A DNA stretch of 64,000 nucleotides, taken from assembly GCA_044356455.1 (NCBI GenBank), contig JBIKWF010000008.1:1-64000 (forward strand). The letters run 5' to 3'. Of this stretch, positions 33,001 through 39,000 are shown piece after piece; the first letter of the stretch is position 1, and every line of letters starts with the position of its first letter. This DNA comes from Bdellovibrionota bacterium. Its GTDB lineage: Bacteria; Bdellovibrionota_C; UBA2361; JBGSMV01. Made by a program: the position numbers.

Positions 33001-36000
33001 TGCGGCTCCCTGGGGCAACCCCGTGCCTGGAGACCTTCGTGGACCTGATCACTATTACGCAAGGACTCTTTCCTTTCGTGAAGGGCGAGACGCATTTCAA
33101 AAGCTCACCTTGGCCCAAGGACAGTCGGAGTCAGCTGCGCGCGAGCTTCTGCGGATTGTTTCTCAGTCATTCATCCACAAAGCAGATGGCCCTTATTACT
33201 TGGGCTTTTTTGATAACTGGATCATGTGGGTACGTAGCCTGACGGATCCGCGCGCAAAGATTTCTCAGGACGGCGAATTCTTGTGGCGGGTTGGTTACGG
33301 ATTTTGTGACCAAGCAGCAACTGTTTACGTCTCACTCGCCAAGCAGCTTGGGTTTCGTGCCCGTATACTTTGGCTAGAGGGACATGTGGTAGCAGAAGTT
33401 CTTGTGCCGAACCTTGGGGGAAGGATTGTCGACCCTGACCTTGGCATATGGTGGGATTTTTCTTCGGCTGAGCTTGCACAAGGTATTTCCCAAACTCGTA
33501 TTGCTAATGAAATTCTTGCTGCGGGATATGATAATGAGCTCGCGCAAAAGATAGCCCAAATTTATGTGAGCACGGAGGATAACAAACTCACCGCTTTGCC
33601 CTATTTGCCAGAGCTATATCGATTTGAGGCAATTTCCAGTTGGCTGAGCCTGCTACTTCCAAGCCTGGGACTATTGTGGTGCGGCGGGTGCCTATTACAT
33701 TCGAGGGCTTACAAGAATAGTACGCGCTGATTTCTTAATCTTTCGGAATCGAATAAAGTCCAACCTTATGAATACCACCGCACGTCAGTTATTCGTTTTG
33801 CTTCTCGCCTTCATCGCTTCCCTCTCTTCGGCTCGCGCCGAAAGCAGCATAAACAATAGCGAACTTTCTTCGCTGAGAATGTGGGTGCTTCCTCATGATA
33901 GTTTGGAGATCTCAAACTCCACGATTTGCCCGCAAGGAGGAGAGGACTGTGTCATCTTTGTGGACCAAAATGCGAAGCTTTCCGTCAACAATACAAGTTT
34001 TGGCCCCAAGGTAAGGATCTTCTATGATTGCTCGTTTACTGAGTGTATCGAATTTAGCAATGTTACTAAGAATGCTCTTGTAGTGGAGGGCCGGCCACCT
34101 TTTCTTACGGCTGCGGCCGCCACCAACCCGGCGTTTCGCCGCACCTCAAAAAGCATGACGAATACGCATCTTCAGCAGTTTTCCGGCCGGATCCCGACGG
34201 GAGAAGCTCTAGAACTTTCAAATGTGCATCTATGCGATGAGGCGGGAGCTGCGTCATGTGTTCTTGATGTTTCTCCTCAGGGCACGCTTATCGCAACGAA
34301 TACGGTTCTTGGGCGCAGGCTGCACATCCGTCCTGCCATGCGCTTACTAGAACAGGTTGAGTTTTCGAACGTTCAGTTTTTCGGCGCATTCTCCGAGTCG
34401 CAATCCACGGCGCAGGCACCCACGAGAAGTGAGGAAGTAAGGGAGCAAAACGAAAAGCTGGTTGCTGATCTCGCCCCACTTAAGCTTCGAGTTGAAGAAA
34501 CTGCTCGGGGAGTCGAGATTAACCTTCCGGGGGTATACTTTGAATTTAATAGATCAGATCTCACGCCCTCTGCGAGTAAAAATGTAACCAAGATTGGTGA
34601 TATTCTGTCGAATGTAGAGGGGAGAGTCGTGAGTGTAGAAGGGCACACTGACAGTGTTGGCTCAGATGAGTATAATTACCGCTTGTCGCGTAGCCGTGCT
34701 GAGGTTGTCAGAGAAGCTCTGGTCGCAAGGGGCTTCTCGTCTTCGCGCATCCGAGCTACCGGATTTGGTGAGAGTCAGCCGGTGAGTGACAATGCCACGG
34801 ACGAGAGGCGTGCGCGGAATAGACGCGTGGAAGTTATTGTTGAGAATTCTGGAACTTTACGCACTTCTTCGGATGACCCCACAGAGAGGCTCAATAGAGA
34901 GGCTTCTAAGTCATCGGGTCAACGTACTTCGCAAGATTCGACCAAGCGCTCCATTAGAGTTGGCGAAGCGAATAATCCAGTCGTGAGTGTGGAAGACGAT
35001 GATATCAAAGTTGGTTCTGGCATTCACGTGACCGACAAACATGTCTCAGTGCATGTTGATGGGCTACACGTGGAGATTGACAAATAGGAGTTAGAAGCTT
35101 CTTGCCGCACAGCAGGCATAATTTCTCACAGCCCCGTACAGGTCAAAGTTAACTATTCCATCAGTTGGATTCACGGATGAGGGGCCAAAGCAGCGACTCG
35201 CAACGCGCCGGTACACCGCATAGGCAACAAAACTTGAAGATGAGCCAACCGATCGAAGAGTGACACTTCCCGTATGAAGCCAGGTGTCATCGGGGAAATT
35301 GAGTCCAAGATTTGCCCGATTCGCGCACGCATACGCGAGGTCTTGGTGCTCACACACGCGGCCGCCAAGTGAATAGCACCGGTTCAAGGCCTCTTCGATT
35401 GTTCCAGATGCAGTGAAGCTTGGCTCTATACAGGTAGGTCCAAGGTCAATCCATCCAGCTGGGCACGAGAGTGTAGGTGTGTTTCCGGCAGGTCCTTGTG
35501 GACCTATCGGGCCAATTGCTCCGGTATCACCCTTAGGCCCTTGCAGACCAATAGCGCCAGGCAATCCTTGGGGCCCTGCGGGTCCCGCTGGGCCAGCGAC
35601 GCCGGTATCGCCCTTTAATCCTTGTGGGCCAGTTGCTCCCATGTCGCCTTTGAGACCTTGAGGTCCTGCGGGACCTGTAGCTCCTGTATCCCCCTTCAAT
35701 CCCTGTAGTCCCGTGGGACCGGTTGCGCCAGTATCACCCTTGAGACCTTGTGCGCCTTGAGGTCCCATAGGTCCAGCAACACCCGTATCTCCTTTTTGTC
35801 CCGTTAGACCTTGCTCGCCGCGATCACCCTTAAGACCTTGCGGGCCTTGTGGTCCAATAGCACCCGCATCACCCTTGTCACCTTTGGGACCGACTGCTCC
35901 GTCAGCTCCCGCAGGTCCGGTTGCACCGGTATCTCCTTTCACTCCCGCCAGACCCTGTTCACCGCGATCCCCTTTAAGTCCTTGCGGGCCTTGTGGTCCA

Positions 36001-39000
36001 ACCGCACCAACATCACCTTTATCGCCCTTGGGTCCGGCCGCTCCATCTGCTCCTACAGGTCCAGCTGCGCCGGTATCACCCTTTAGACCTTGTGCGCCTT
36101 GCGGTCCCGCAGGTCCGACATTTCCCGTATCTCCTTTTGGTCCCACCAAACCTTGCTCGCCGGTATCACCCTTAAGTCCTTGCGGGCCCTGTGGTCCAAC
36201 CGCACCGGCATCGCCTTTGTCGCCCTTGGGACCGACCGCTCCATCTGCTCCTGCAGGTCCAGTTGCGCCAGTATCACCCTTTAGACCTTGTGCGCCTTGA
36301 GGTCCTGCAGTTCCGACATCTCCCGTATCTCCTTTTGGTCCCACCAAACCTTGCTCGCCGGTATCACCCTTAAGTCCTTGCGGGCCCTGTGGTCCAACCG
36401 CACCAACATCACCTCTATCGCCCTTTGGACCGACTGCTCCATCAGCTCCCGCTGGCCCAGTTGCTCCGGTTTCACCTTTGAGACCTTGTGCGCCTTGCGG
36501 CCCCGCCGGTCCGACATTTCCCGTATCTCCCTTTTGTCCCGCAAGACCTTGCTCTCCGCGATCTCCTTTCAGTCCTTGCGGGCCTTGTGGTCCAACCGCT
36601 CCCGCATCACCTTTTTCGCCCTTCGGACCGAGCGCTCCATCTGCTCCTGCAGGTCCAGTTGCTCCAGTATCACCCTTAAGACCTTGTGTGCCTTGCGGCC
36701 CGGCAGGTCCTACATCTCCCGTATCTCCTTTTGGTCCCACCAAACCTTGCTCGCCTCGATCACCCTTAAGTCCTTGCGGGCCCTGTGGTCCAACCGCACC
36801 AGCATCGCCTTTGTCGCCCTTGGGACCGACCGCTCCATCTGCTCCTGCAGGCCCAGTTGCACCGGTATCACCTTTAAGACCTTGTGCACCTTGCGGACCC
36901 ATAGGTCCAGCAACACCCATATCTCCTTTTGGTCCCGCAAGACCTTGCTCTCCGCGATCTCCTTTCAGTCCTTGCGGGCCTTGTGGTCCAACAGCACCCG
37001 CATTACCCGTTGGTCCTTGCTCTCCTTGTTCGCCCTTTAACCCCTGAGGTCCAGCAACTCCGGCATCGCCCTTCTCTCCTTTTGGACCTTGAGCCCCATC
37101 AGCTCCCGCCTGGCCCTGCAAGCCGGGAAGTCCTTGTGGGCCTGCAATTCCCTGTGGACCTTGTTGCCCCTCTGCTCCCGTGGCGCCGGTCTCACCTTTC
37201 TCACCGCGTTCTCCTTGCGATCCCGCCGGGCCAGCAGGCCCTTCAGGACCCATTGGTCCGGTGTCGCCTTTATCACCCTTGGGCCCTTGCACTTGAAGGG
37301 CGCCGAGAAGTTCAAGGAGTTCAGTAATGGTTACGACGGAAGATAAAAGAGGATAGCTTCGCCCAGAATGGCCACTTGTGTAGACCTGCAAATAAACTTT
37401 GCCTGAGGGACTTTTTGGAACCGAGACTGCGAGAGTAATAAGTCCGTCACGATCAATTTTTCCTGTGCCGACAATACTCGCGCCGCTCGCAGGCTTCGCT
37501 TGCGACCCTTGCAAGACAAAAACATCCGGCTTCAAGCTTATGCCAAGGGTATAGTTGGTGAAGGCCACACCTCGAATCGAGACATTTACTTTGGTGTCCC
37601 CACCCGCACTCAGAATCGCAGGCTCCGAAACGGAAATATCTGGCGCCTCTTTGTTCCAGGAATCAGCCTGCGCTTCCCGTCGCCCTATCAGCAAGCCAAG
37701 GAACAGCGCAGCAACAATCGGATTGAGGAGCAGCACTGGATACTTCAAGAGAACCTCGCAGTTTACGGCGAAAAGTTTCGTCCAGTGCCTACCCCGCGTG
37801 AGTAGTGAAGTTCGGCGTGATTGTGAGCTGTGATGAGATTTTGAATCTGAGTGTCGAGCGCGCTTAGATTAAATTGAGAAATCAGCGCATTGGTGATTCA
37901 TTAGAATTCACAAAAATCTCTGAGCATTCCTCTCACTAAGCACTATGGAGTTCTCTGAAAGCGGCCTTTCCGTGCCGCATGTAATGCGGGGAGAATCTGG
38001 GAGGCTTCGTCTCCAACTTTGTCGGGATAAGAATCTACGAGTGCTCCTATTCGCGATAGAATAGTGAATCCAAACTACTGGTCACCGCGGCAAAGCATAG
38101 TGCAGAAATGGGGGGGCGAGGTGTGTACGCGCCCCCCTCTCTTTTCGGTCTCGTACGAGTCGGGAGAAAGACTCATGAGGAGCCCATTCGCTTCAAGCTG
38201 GCTCCACTCTCCACTCCTCGAATAGGAGAGATGGAGTGTGGAGCCAATCATTACTTCAGTGCATTCGCCAGTACGGCCTACTGCACGCCGCAGGCTCTCT
38301 GGTCGCTAGGATGCACTACTACTCTTTGGCACGGCCCCTCACGGAAGCATGAAAGGCCCACCATTTGACCAGCACTGTTAATGGAATCGGGCTGAAACCA
38401 TTCTATCTGCTCGTAGGCAGAGGGCATAAGGTCAGAAAATTTTCTTATCCCAGAGCGCTCGTCCCAAAGGAATTGAAACCCTTCGGTTTCAGTGTATGCC
38501 GATCCTACGAACGAACCACGCTGGCTAGCGTGATGAATAAGGACGCTTGCGCCCTCAAGCCCAACCTCGTCATTAAGGTGGATAAGCCTCCGATGCGAGG
38601 GCCACACGAGTGCATGGTGGATAACCCTCTCCTCTCCATTGCTACCATGGACGAGTTCCTCCCCTCGGCCGATAGCGGTGCCTGATTCAAGTAAGTCCTG
38701 AAGCCATGCATTCTCAATGCCTGACGGGAGAGGGAGCTGCACAACTGGTCGGCCCAAAGGACGTAGTGCCGGACGATACTTGTGTAGGACTGGGTCTACC
38801 AGAAGAGCTCCACCAAAGGTGAGAGCAGAATTCAAATGGTCGGCAGAGAAGTTTGCAGGCATCCTTTGATCAAGGTACCGATTTCTTATGAGCAAACTGT
38901 GCTGTATTTCGTTGCGCTCTCCAATGCCAATAAAGAGAGTGATGCCCGACGTGCTTAGGTCTACTGCAAGAAGTCCGTTTGGGTAACGCGGGGGAGCTGG

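Follow-up and report, generated by a model that had tools for sequence, protein, structure and literature searches.

The analysed window is a stretch of 64,000 nucleotides from the genome of a Bdellovibrionota bacterium, an uncultured lake organism that is probably Gram-negative and probably related to the predatory Bdellovibrio. Its minus strand carries at 35091..37748 an open reading frame (ORF) of 885 amino acids (aa) for a secreted collagen-like fibre with a head modelled as C-type-lectin-like (Pfam Collagen 312.6 bits, cut-off 27.2 bits). The survey's finding had placed this gene at 35091..37736; the ORF itself is borne out, and the 5' end now lies at 37748 with a TTG start, position 37736 being the next in-frame GTG. 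From N to C terminus the protein consists of a signal-like peptide (37662..37748), a 126-aa domain (37287..37661), 201 Gly-X-Y triplets (35478..37286) and a 128-aa head with eight cysteines (35094..35477), all encoded on the minus strand. By a hydropathy heuristic the N-terminus resembles a Sec-type signal without a lipobox (maximal 12-residue mean of 2.83, followed by an A-x-A site). The stalk is a single uninterrupted run with Pro at 16% of X plus Y positions and no Gly in X or Y, and at the triple-helix rise of 0.29 nm per residue it would measure about 175 nm if the whole run is triple-helical. It contains a 198-bp tandem unit (35908-37007; 5.6 copies, 85% identity). Long pieces of X1 and X2, among the matches listed from four public runs, equal both stalk flanks without differences, and no contig among those matches bridges 36152-36963, so the count of 201 triplets is that of this assembly alone. 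On its stalk the protein also passes the cut-off of NF038329 (334.5 versus 325), by which automatic annotation would mislabel it. LPXTG-anchored collagens of the Scl1/Scl2 type have an N-terminal head and a C-terminal cell-wall anchor; this type was rejected for the focal protein, whose head is C-terminal and which has no C-terminal membrane segment.

A second collagen gene (39605..40993, minus strand) encodes 462 aa, i.e., a signal-like peptide, a Cys-rich part, a short-form basic two-cysteine hairpin directly before the stalk (40670..40762, minus strand; 25.0 bits with profile A12; E 3e-6), 20 triplets and a 293-aa glycine-rich head. Homologues of the focal gene comprise nine at 61-70% head identity and one near-identical fragment, all matching Pfam Collagen, with stalks of 30-112 triplets. 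In two of four homologous loci (L048 and L049) a homologue of the second collagen gene is directly upstream of the focal homologue; it is absent from the upstream DNA covered at L050, and L051 ends at a contig end. Judged by gene order, the second collagen gene accompanies the focal one as a conserved partner. The secreted protein encoded between them (38278..39399, minus strand; no Pfam match at E 0.1) has no homologue between the collagen genes of L048 and L049, and its membership in the same unit is uncertain.

A genome-wide scan for ORFs with at least eight collagen-type triplets yielded 23 ORFs. Contigs C201 (at its end) and C205 (at its start) share a 173-bp overlap of 97.7% identity and probably carry pieces of one gene, so the family is counted as 22 genes. 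Twenty had been reported; every listed place is real, all 19 besides the focal one having been recovered, and the total was too low, C28:1239-1772 and C115:460-1263 being the genes beyond that list. The C-[QKR]-R-K motif is present in eight of the twenty as described (and in the C201 fragment), and a DUF6502 gene, the putative regulator, indeed adjoins the collagen gene at four loci; tails, given as 33-425 residues, measure 71-425 aa, the upper end agreeing and the value of 33 not being reproduced. The focal gene is an outlier, with neither the cysteine motif nor a DUF6502 neighbour. The reported hydrophobic signal-like N-terminus is found in all 22 genes by the hydropathy heuristic (not SignalP). 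The genes are scattered, their heads fall into 16 sequence clusters, and the cysteine count is even in every head. Stalks range from 8 to 201 triplets (about 7-175 nm). As in other bacterial collagens, which favour Pro in X and Gln, Thr or Lys in Y, the Gly-X-Y runs are long and unbroken, PF01391 scores lie above the cut-off, X is often Pro (34% over 982 triplets of the set) and Y is often Gln (26%) or Thr (22%). Phage tail fibres were considered and rejected: signal-like N-termini are present, and the neighbours are, by eye, not phage structural genes. PHROG matches at E 0.01 occur in two of 22 tails only, one falling on an internal repeat of C205 and the other on the glycine-rich head.

A basic two-cysteine hairpin begins 18 of the 22 proteins; across some 45 residues its net charge ranges from +2 to +9. 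No Pfam family corresponds to it. Of 124 genomes from the phylum, 48 match a profile of the short form, and this form also caps non-collagen fibres. The hairpin is a candidate secretion or surface-anchoring tag that is open to testing. The focal protein carries instead its 126-aa domain, which is single-copy in this genome, kept in ten homologues (E between 3e-22 and 3e-11) and, with a weak match, in L128 (E 3e-5), there joined to a BclA_C-like head. This domain is probably an Ig-like beta-sandwich, a lead only, since its Ig-like Atlas matches all score below 0.9.

By regular expression none of the 22 genes has a lipobox, and hydropathy gives no clear membrane segment at any C-terminus (values below 1.6 for 21 of 22 and 1.61 for one). 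None of the known outer-membrane anchors is present, and the proteins could therefore be released. Shed trimers might then act as soluble collectin-like cross-linkers or form a sheath, aggregates or biofilm matrix, while the strongly basic hairpin would bind polyanions or be only an export or folding tag; the Legionella protein Lcl, according to PMC11162425, also occurs in supernatants and drives auto-aggregation and biofilm formation. We nevertheless judge release, with this role of the hairpin, to be unlikely, as sixteen head types on stalks of 8-201 triplets are more in keeping with distant recognition than with a bulk scaffold, and the hairpin occupies the mature N-terminus, the same place as the Lcl anchor.

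Alternatively, the hairpin could dock on Flp-like minor pilins or flagellar filaments, the collagens being interchangeable tips of Tad/Kil-type pili co-regulated through DUF6502. A collagen gene lies within 600 bp of four of 14 DUF6502 genes (null mean 0.15, p about 3e-4), each of these four loci also adjoins a gene for an Flp-like pilin, four of 22 flagellin-like genes are within 4.5 kb of a collagen gene (null 0.84, p about 0.006), RcpC passes its cut-off in five copies, and exchangeable Tad pilus tips are described in Myxococcus (PMC12075869). Against this, sixteen of the 22 collagen genes, among them the focal one, lie away from DUF6502/pilin loci, and among 20 of 23 matched DUF6502 loci of kin, with 1.5-kb flanks, collagen adjoins none and a pilin-like gene five (four by motif, one by eye). 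Furthermore, GspD and PilQ are the only secretins found in the genome, the pilin assignment consists of a motif and one weak Pfam match (E 0.045), and the known Kil tips are made of pilins, the word "collagen" being absent from the main text of PMC12075869. A role as pilus or flagellar tips is, in our opinion, very improbable.

The focal head was modelled by AF2 with a pLDDT of 78, and its top Foldseek match was 8oks (E 1e-4), the tip Bd2740 of a Bdellovibrio MAT fibre, which was also closest by VIA (Z 11.4, rmsd 2.6 over 102 aa, 19% identity), followed by Legionella Lcl (8q4e; Z 9.5, rmsd 2.9 over 103 aa). The head thus models as a C-type-lectin-like fold. Without its stalk it is predicted to be a homotrimer, scoring 0.86 against a best of 0.00 in three controls; at least 60% of contacts agree between runs, at a pLDDT of at least 78. 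Of 30 solved pairs, 20 attained the mark used, as did one of 23 single chains; resemblance to the solved trimers of Bd2740 or Lcl may underlie the score. Another head of the family is homologous to the P2 domain of perforin-2 (E 1e-11), a module also found on hydrolase-domain proteins, some of them named as myxobacterial; membrane binding by perforin-2 has been ascribed to a long hairpin (PMC6989145), and the bacterial head is likened to perforin-2 by its P2 homology. A resistin/PCSK9-like jelly roll with middling Z of 6.0-7.8 was modelled on P0034, a homologue of the C97 head, and heads of kin members gave BclA_C and weak C1q matches. Several results count against a fibre-adhesin function: no Pfam cut-off was passed by any of the 22 heads, PDB profile searches for four head clusters gave nothing useful, only three of the 16 clusters in this genome have an assigned fold, one of them weakly, and the focal head is without sugar or Ca motifs. 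The set has the look of mosaic tips of known adhesive folds, including modelled C-type-lectin-like and P2-like heads among its 16 clusters.

The heads appear to be exchanged. Between the paralogs on C156 and C172, pS is 0.31-0.32 in the N-terminal part and stalk and 0.73 in the head, a likely head swap, and among homologues the focal N-terminal domain is joined to a different head, as the focal head is to different N-termini. The proposal of trimeric stalks with unlike, exchangeable heads and a MAT-like logic thus holds up on models, by the best match to a MAT tip, the head trimer and this recombination. A small integrative element next to a tRNA (CHC2 primase, AAA_25, DUF5681) carries one copy. 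Two of four genomes of the same family (92-93% complete) have no PF01391 match, so collagen is patchy in kin and not essential to the lineage. Pressure from enemies or hosts could also lie behind the head diversity, as in Pasteuria, the surface-bound fibres being decoys or spacers against phages or grazers, or serving attachment to a eukaryotic host. Several head folds are common to animal innate-immunity proteins, lake-water runs are the best holders of this DNA, the mobile copy would fit such a coat, and the largest known collagen expansion is that of a freshwater-crustacean parasite (PMC13233619). Against this, pN is lower than pS in all compared heads (pS near saturation), which at this depth gives no indication of positive selection, and the best fold match is to a fibre tip, the deletion of which slows predation (PMC10769870). 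To a defensive or mimicry coat we therefore give little credence.

We propose, as the probable but by no means certain account, that the genes encode secreted, homotrimeric, surface-held fibre adhesins that form a multi-specific recognition kit, since the classified heads are of adhesive or binding folds, signal-like N-termini without a lipobox are present in 22 of 22 genes, no C-terminus has a clear membrane segment, every head has an even number of cysteines and the focal head alone models as a trimer. Each chain would enter the periplasm by its Sec signal, and its paired cysteines presumably oxidise there. The C-terminal head would trimerise and set the register of the triple helix, nucleation being assumed by analogy with Lcl and EPclA. 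The folded trimer could then exit through a type II secretion system, as Lcl does (gspC, D, E and F on C11 pass NCBIfam cut-offs), and the N-terminal module, a hairpin in 18 of 22 proteins and the probably Ig-like domain in the focal one, would keep the fibre on its own cell surface. Stalks of differing length would present the 16 kinds of head at different distances, and heads would be traded by recombination and duplication, in part on small mobile elements, so that the set may act like Bdellovibrio MAT fibres or Pasteuria Pcl proteins. Prey bacteria are the likeliest single target, at somewhat less than an even chance, with particles, algae or kin cells as further candidates. A bolder, tentative and rather doubtful extension makes the hairpin a lineage-wide export-and-anchor tag of an undescribed display system: any trimeric fibre with it, whether a bare head or one on a shaft of collagen, coiled coil or phage-fibre-like type, would be exported and attached to a shared platform at the surface, perhaps formed by minor pilins of a Tad/Kil-type pilus. 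An uncultured predator class would then recognise prey, independently of Bdellovibrio MAT, through a recombining set of heads on collagen stalks, with folds like those of innate immunity (C-type lectin, C1q/TNF, perforin-2 P2, resistin).

The set suggests that the multi-tip fibre strategy has a second version, built on collagen, in an uncultured lineage that is probably close to Bdellovibrio. Its heads are small and expressible, and their ligands would reveal what such bacteria bind or eat; the P2-like domain on bacterial fibres and hydrolase-domain proteins bears on the origin of that domain; and a natural, unbroken Gly-X-Y run of 600 residues, joined to a small head that would trimerise, may be of use as recombinant collagen.

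Animal collectins and C1q likewise join a collagen stalk to a trimeric C-type lectin or C1q head, collectins having a coiled-coil neck and a Ca-dependent sugar site (EPN or QPD, plus WND). The focal head follows the last triplet directly without such a neck, EPN, QPD and WND are absent from it, and Pro is mostly in X rather than Y; the likeness is one of convergent design. The combination of signal peptide, collagen and trimeric C-type-lectin-like head is the known design of Lcl, a lollipop-shaped protein that is type-II-secreted and surface-bound via its N-terminus, with an N-module, a Gly-X-Y stalk of variable length and a head without Ca motifs (PMC11162425). Its host is Gram-negative, as the present one probably is, with type II secretion, the genes for which are present here. 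The focal protein differs in its eight head cysteines (the Lcl C-terminal domain is described there without disulphides) and in its N-module (a 30-aa amphipathic helix in Lcl, a 126-aa domain or disulphide hairpin here), PF07603 (DUF1566/Lcl_C) gave no match in its head at E 1, it does not reach the Lcl cut-off NF046116 (413.1 bits versus 500), and this genome has 22 genes with 16 head types. That so large a bacterial collagen family was undescribed, as had been suggested, is contradicted by the 36-45 such genes of Pasteuria ramosa and 47 of Thermoactinomyces sp. (PMC13233619). Pasteuria shares the large expansion, duplication, gain and loss, and specificity set by the C-terminal head, the Pcl7 C-terminus mediating host-specific attachment (PMC10987987); it is an endospore-forming Bacillota parasite of Daphnia whose genes are largely triplets radiating from few ancestors, whereas here scattered genes of a probably Gram-negative host have Sec-type signals and disulphide-rich heads of unrelated folds. 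Several collagen-like genes of varied architecture per Gram-negative genome are also known from the 13 Bucl genes of Burkholderia, described as phylogenetically unrelated to one another (PMC4565658), and from EHEC EPcl prophage fibre proteins, among which the EPclA C-terminal domain is a trimerisation module (PMC3368898); the genes here have a common N-terminal cap and signal-like peptides. Some 21 secreted trimeric fibres make up Bdellovibrio MAT, all built on one type of N-terminal module and ending in mosaic tips (PMC10769870); tips of the TNF/C1q type are common to it and kin members here. MAT shafts are phage-fibre-like in proteins of about 1000 aa rather than collagen, a word that occurs 0 times in that paper and its readable supplement; an S74 chaperone is present in 13 of 21 MAT fibres, and PF13884 has no match in this genome (93% complete). 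The shared module is 25-45 aa here and about 130 aa in MAT, where a conserved beta-rich domain follows the signal peptide, which the 126-aa focal domain resembles by size only, and MAT display and predation roles are experimental, while this set is known from genes and models. The collagen fibre set therefore looks like a variant, itself undescribed, of known bacterial collagen adhesins and not like a new principle; what is new here is the hairpin, in 18 of 22 genes, in part of the phylum's genomes and on non-collagen fibres.

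Six-frame scanning of the genome (G000; 4.70 Mb, 216 contigs, 93% complete) for at least 8 collagen-type Gly-X-Y triplets, after exclusion of Gly-rich GG-x and GRE-repeat ORFs with high Gly content or X/Y positions without Pro (on contigs C68, C210, the end of C205, C121 and others), gave 23 ORFs. The end of C201 and the start of C205 overlap by 173 bp at 97.7% identity, and the count is therefore 22 genes, which include all 20 of the survey's finding together with C28:1239-1772 and C115:460-1263. The stalks contain 8-201 triplets and are followed by C-terminal tails (heads) of 71-425 aa, each with an even number of cysteines (2-8). 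A hydrophobic signal-like stretch is present in all 22 genes by a hydropathy heuristic, and a lipobox in none. An identity as prophage tail fibres was rejected. Collagen matches (not genes) were detected in 30 of 40 related genomes (kin), with 36-51 matches in three genomes. The host would belong to Bdellovibrionota in the wide sense; 23 of the 24 public sequencing runs listed with this DNA are from lake water, five contain half or more of its sequence words, one run (X1) may be where the assembly came from, and none of those listed is an RNA data set.

The focal gene (35091-37748, minus strand) encodes 885 aa, in which a signal-like stretch is followed by a 126-aa domain, an unbroken run of 201 Gly-X-Y triplets and a 128-aa tail (residues 758-885). 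An opposite-strand or frame artefact was ruled out because the frame stays open for 925 codons and the same architecture is kept in the homologues, which carry 30-112 triplets. Inside the stalk a 198-bp unit is present in 5.6 copies. In the four public runs examined, long pieces of two (X1 and X2) are identical to the flanks of this repeat with zero differences, and none of the contigs listed spans 36152-36963, so that the figure of 201 triplets stands without independent confirmation. An atlas fold search with the N-terminal domain gave only leads below 0.9. A secreted OmpA-family protein (33768-35087, plus strand) is convergent, ends 3 bases from the focal stop, and was not seen next to the focal homologues in the kin loci L048-L050. 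The conserved neighbour is a second collagen (39605-40993, minus strand), adjacent in L048 and L049. Just upstream of the latter, 41236-42102 (minus strand) encodes a protein of 288 aa that weakly matches an HTH at its N-terminus (E 0.04) and is a candidate regulator of the collagen pair. By eye, 28383-29897 (minus strand) resembles a HipA-type kinase accompanied by an XRE antitoxin gene.

Nine homologues of the focal head were found at 61-70% identity, every one a collagen, and the head occurs in four GTDB loci, from MAGs labelled Bdellovibrionota (2), Bdellovibrionales (1) and Pseudomonadota (1). The AF2 model of the head, built from a 10-row alignment (pLDDT 78), had its best Foldseek match in Bdellovibrio Bd2740 (C-terminal domain; E 1e-4), with C-type lectin domains of animals ranking next; an exhaustive fold search returned Bd2740 (Z 11.4, rmsd 2.6, 102 aa), CD72 (Z 9.9), LLT1 (Z 9.8) and Legionella Lcl (Z 9.5). 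The EPN, QPD and WND motifs are all missing from the focal head, and Ca-binding motifs are missing in Bd2740 and Lcl too, according to the available portions of PMC10769870 and PMC11162425, respectively. With three copies of the head alone a cyclic trimer was predicted, scoring 0.86 against a best of 0.00 in three controls, a mark that solved pairs attained in 20 of 30 cases and single chains in 1 of 23; the runs agreed in at least 60% of contacts with pLDDT of at least 78. This pass may stem from a likeness to already solved trimers.

The 22 heads form 16 clusters, and not one head passed a Pfam cut-off. The C202 head contains three internal repeats, and its profile (14 rows: two seeds and 12 of 40 homologues) matched perforin-2/MPEG1 exclusively at E < 0.02 (best 1e-11). 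The same perforin-2 P2-like three-repeat module is also attached to many bacterial proteins of greater length (P0049-P0086), of which two are named as myxobacterial and one as from Dyella; these longer proteins have Pfam domains of peptidase, phospholipase or pectate-lyase-like type, and the 165-aa P2-like head has no Pfam match. Perforin-2's own P2 domain binds acidic lipids and LPS, which the accessible text of PMC6989145 credits to the long hairpin of perforin-2. The largest cluster, C97 included, comprises 15 of 67 pooled heads (duplicates counted) and was modelled via one protein (P0034; head pLDDT mostly > 90), whose head part, searched by itself, has a middling resemblance to the C-terminal module of PCSK9 (Z 7.8) and to resistin (Z 6.0). 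Heads of the BclA_C type occur in kin members (E 1e-13 and 4e-8), as does a weak match to C1q, and PDB sequence-profile searches with the head clusters of C157, C120 and C122 and the glycine-rich one yielded no informative match.

Between C156 and C172, the N-terminal part and stalk are 91% and 97% identical (pS 0.31-0.32) whereas the head is 55% identical (pS 0.73), a difference that, from the sequences, is best read as a head likely swapped in from a more distant allele. C113 and C122, whose N-termini are unlike, carry a common head (56%), the focal N-domain weakly recurs with a BclA_C-like head in one kin genome (G001), and the focal head is present without that N-domain in L048 and in the protein P0004. 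The glycine-rich head of the second collagen is found in C29:55-1182 with zero triplets, so one head type exists with and without a stalk. A small integrative, phage-satellite-like element beside tRNA-Arg (L010, C172:9052-15069), with CHC2 zinc finger, AAA_25 and DUF5681 genes, carries the C172 collagen gene as cargo.

A basic hairpin that two cysteines close lies just ahead of the stalk in 18 of the 22 genes (a descriptive count, since the same genes built the profiles), and in 17 of them it follows the signal directly. Neither the long-form (A2) nor the short-form (A12) profile matched the focal gene, C97, C113 or C154:105980, and the hairpin is covered by no Pfam family. The long form was found in 38 proteins among 1.84 billion representatives (32 with Gly-X-Y, two evidently spurious, four from G000 or near-identical) and, within the order, in 18 of 91 genomes, with 12 copies in G000 and 1-3 in the others. 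The short form occurs in 48 of 124 genomes of the phylum (44/91 within the order, 4/33 outside), of which at most 10 gave training rows and one has a sole match carrying stops; at 16 bits, reversed ORFs gave 0 matches against 7 on true ORFs. The hairpin profile retrieved 6 proteins in a word-index search, whose sensitivity is too low to gauge the range outside the phylum. In 24 matches examined in 21 of 30 loci (one a training row), a hydrophobic stretch precedes all by eye; 15 run into at least 5 triplets, and the remainder belong to proteins that combine coiled coil with beta-helix, to a phage-fibre-like protein, or to chains in which a short linker and a head follow. The non-collagen carriers of G000 are on C51 (25.9 bits and a weak 12.8 bits). 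On this contig, a 1120-aa secreted phage-fibre-like protein (264-3638, minus strand; L164:267-3626) has four V/I-G-x-G-T/V-x-x-P loops, a homologue in G015 (L152), and a C-terminus that presumably resembles an autocleaving chaperone; it matches the hairpin weakly and nothing in Pfam or the PDB. Tandem arrays of three long collagens with the short hairpin were observed in another genus (L114, G009 C76; L123, G038 C363; L124, G027 C177), with 118-122 triplets in L114 and a long G-V/I-S repeat stalk in one array member.

Four of 14 DUF6502 genes are located at most 600 bp from a collagen gene (p ~3e-4), each bordered on its opposite side by a Flp-like pilin gene, and 4 of 22 flagellin-like genes are within 4.5 kb (p ~0.006), both against a null of random gene placement that ignores clustering of accessory genes. 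DUF6502 is a putative regulator by one weak HTH match. The DUF6502-pilin pair recurs in kin, and a collagen beside it, i.e., a conserved three-gene operon, was not found in the 20 kin loci examined; that the collagens are pilus-tip fibres is the least probable of the readings considered here. A recent duplication of one DUF6502 cassette is unsupported, as the four proteins show deep divergence and do not group in a supported clade. The pair, with a small Flp-like pilin, is present on C101, C113, C154, C201, C202 and C211 and kept in two kin genomes (listed loci L059, L063, L066, L073, L080), and DUF6502 genes of a second class are followed by a lipoprotein-like gene, e.g., at 45228-46924. Near-full-length Flagellin_N matches number 22 in G000 (25 in total; ORFs of 288-640 aa). 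In the one at 59931-61760 (minus strand), FG-GAP propeller repeats separate the N- and C-terminal flagellin domains, and similar repeats are seen by eye in about eight others, possibly a second variable surface repertoire.

The architecture, the number of genes, the diversity of heads, one or more likely head swaps and the secretion genes are observed directly, and the head fold and trimer are modelled. We consider the collagen set to be probably a cell-surface adhesin repertoire. The genome encodes gspC, D, E and F above NCBIfam cut-offs, PilQ and PilM, and five RcpC matches above cut-off; the S74 chaperone has zero matches in the 93% complete genome. The chains would be exported by Sec and form disulphides, the head would nucleate the triple helix, and the fibres would exit via type II secretion. 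Anchoring would be through the N-terminus; that the proteins are instead released or part of a matrix is unlikely. As adhesins the fibres would function in binding, and a defensive or host-attachment coat is somewhat less likely again than release.

Among known systems, Lcl resembles the design of a single gene here and the Bdellovibrio MAT fibres (21 proteins in the available part of PMC10769870) have a similar family logic, but by the membership tests the G000 set belongs to neither. The family size, which the survey had regarded as unprecedented, is surpassed by P. ramosa (36-45 genes) and Thermoactinomyces (47), as given in the accessible portion of PMC13233619; the available text of PMC4565658 gives 13 collagen-like genes for Burkholderia, and that of PMC10987987 describes the Pcl7 head as a demonstrated adhesin. 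Literature searches, with most subscription papers outside their coverage, found no publication on collagen fibres in this lineage. The G000 collagens form a genuine family that is so far undescribed and represents a variant of the collagen-like adhesins of bacteria; its originality is mostly in the common hairpin cap and the mixture of head folds rather than in the number of genes.
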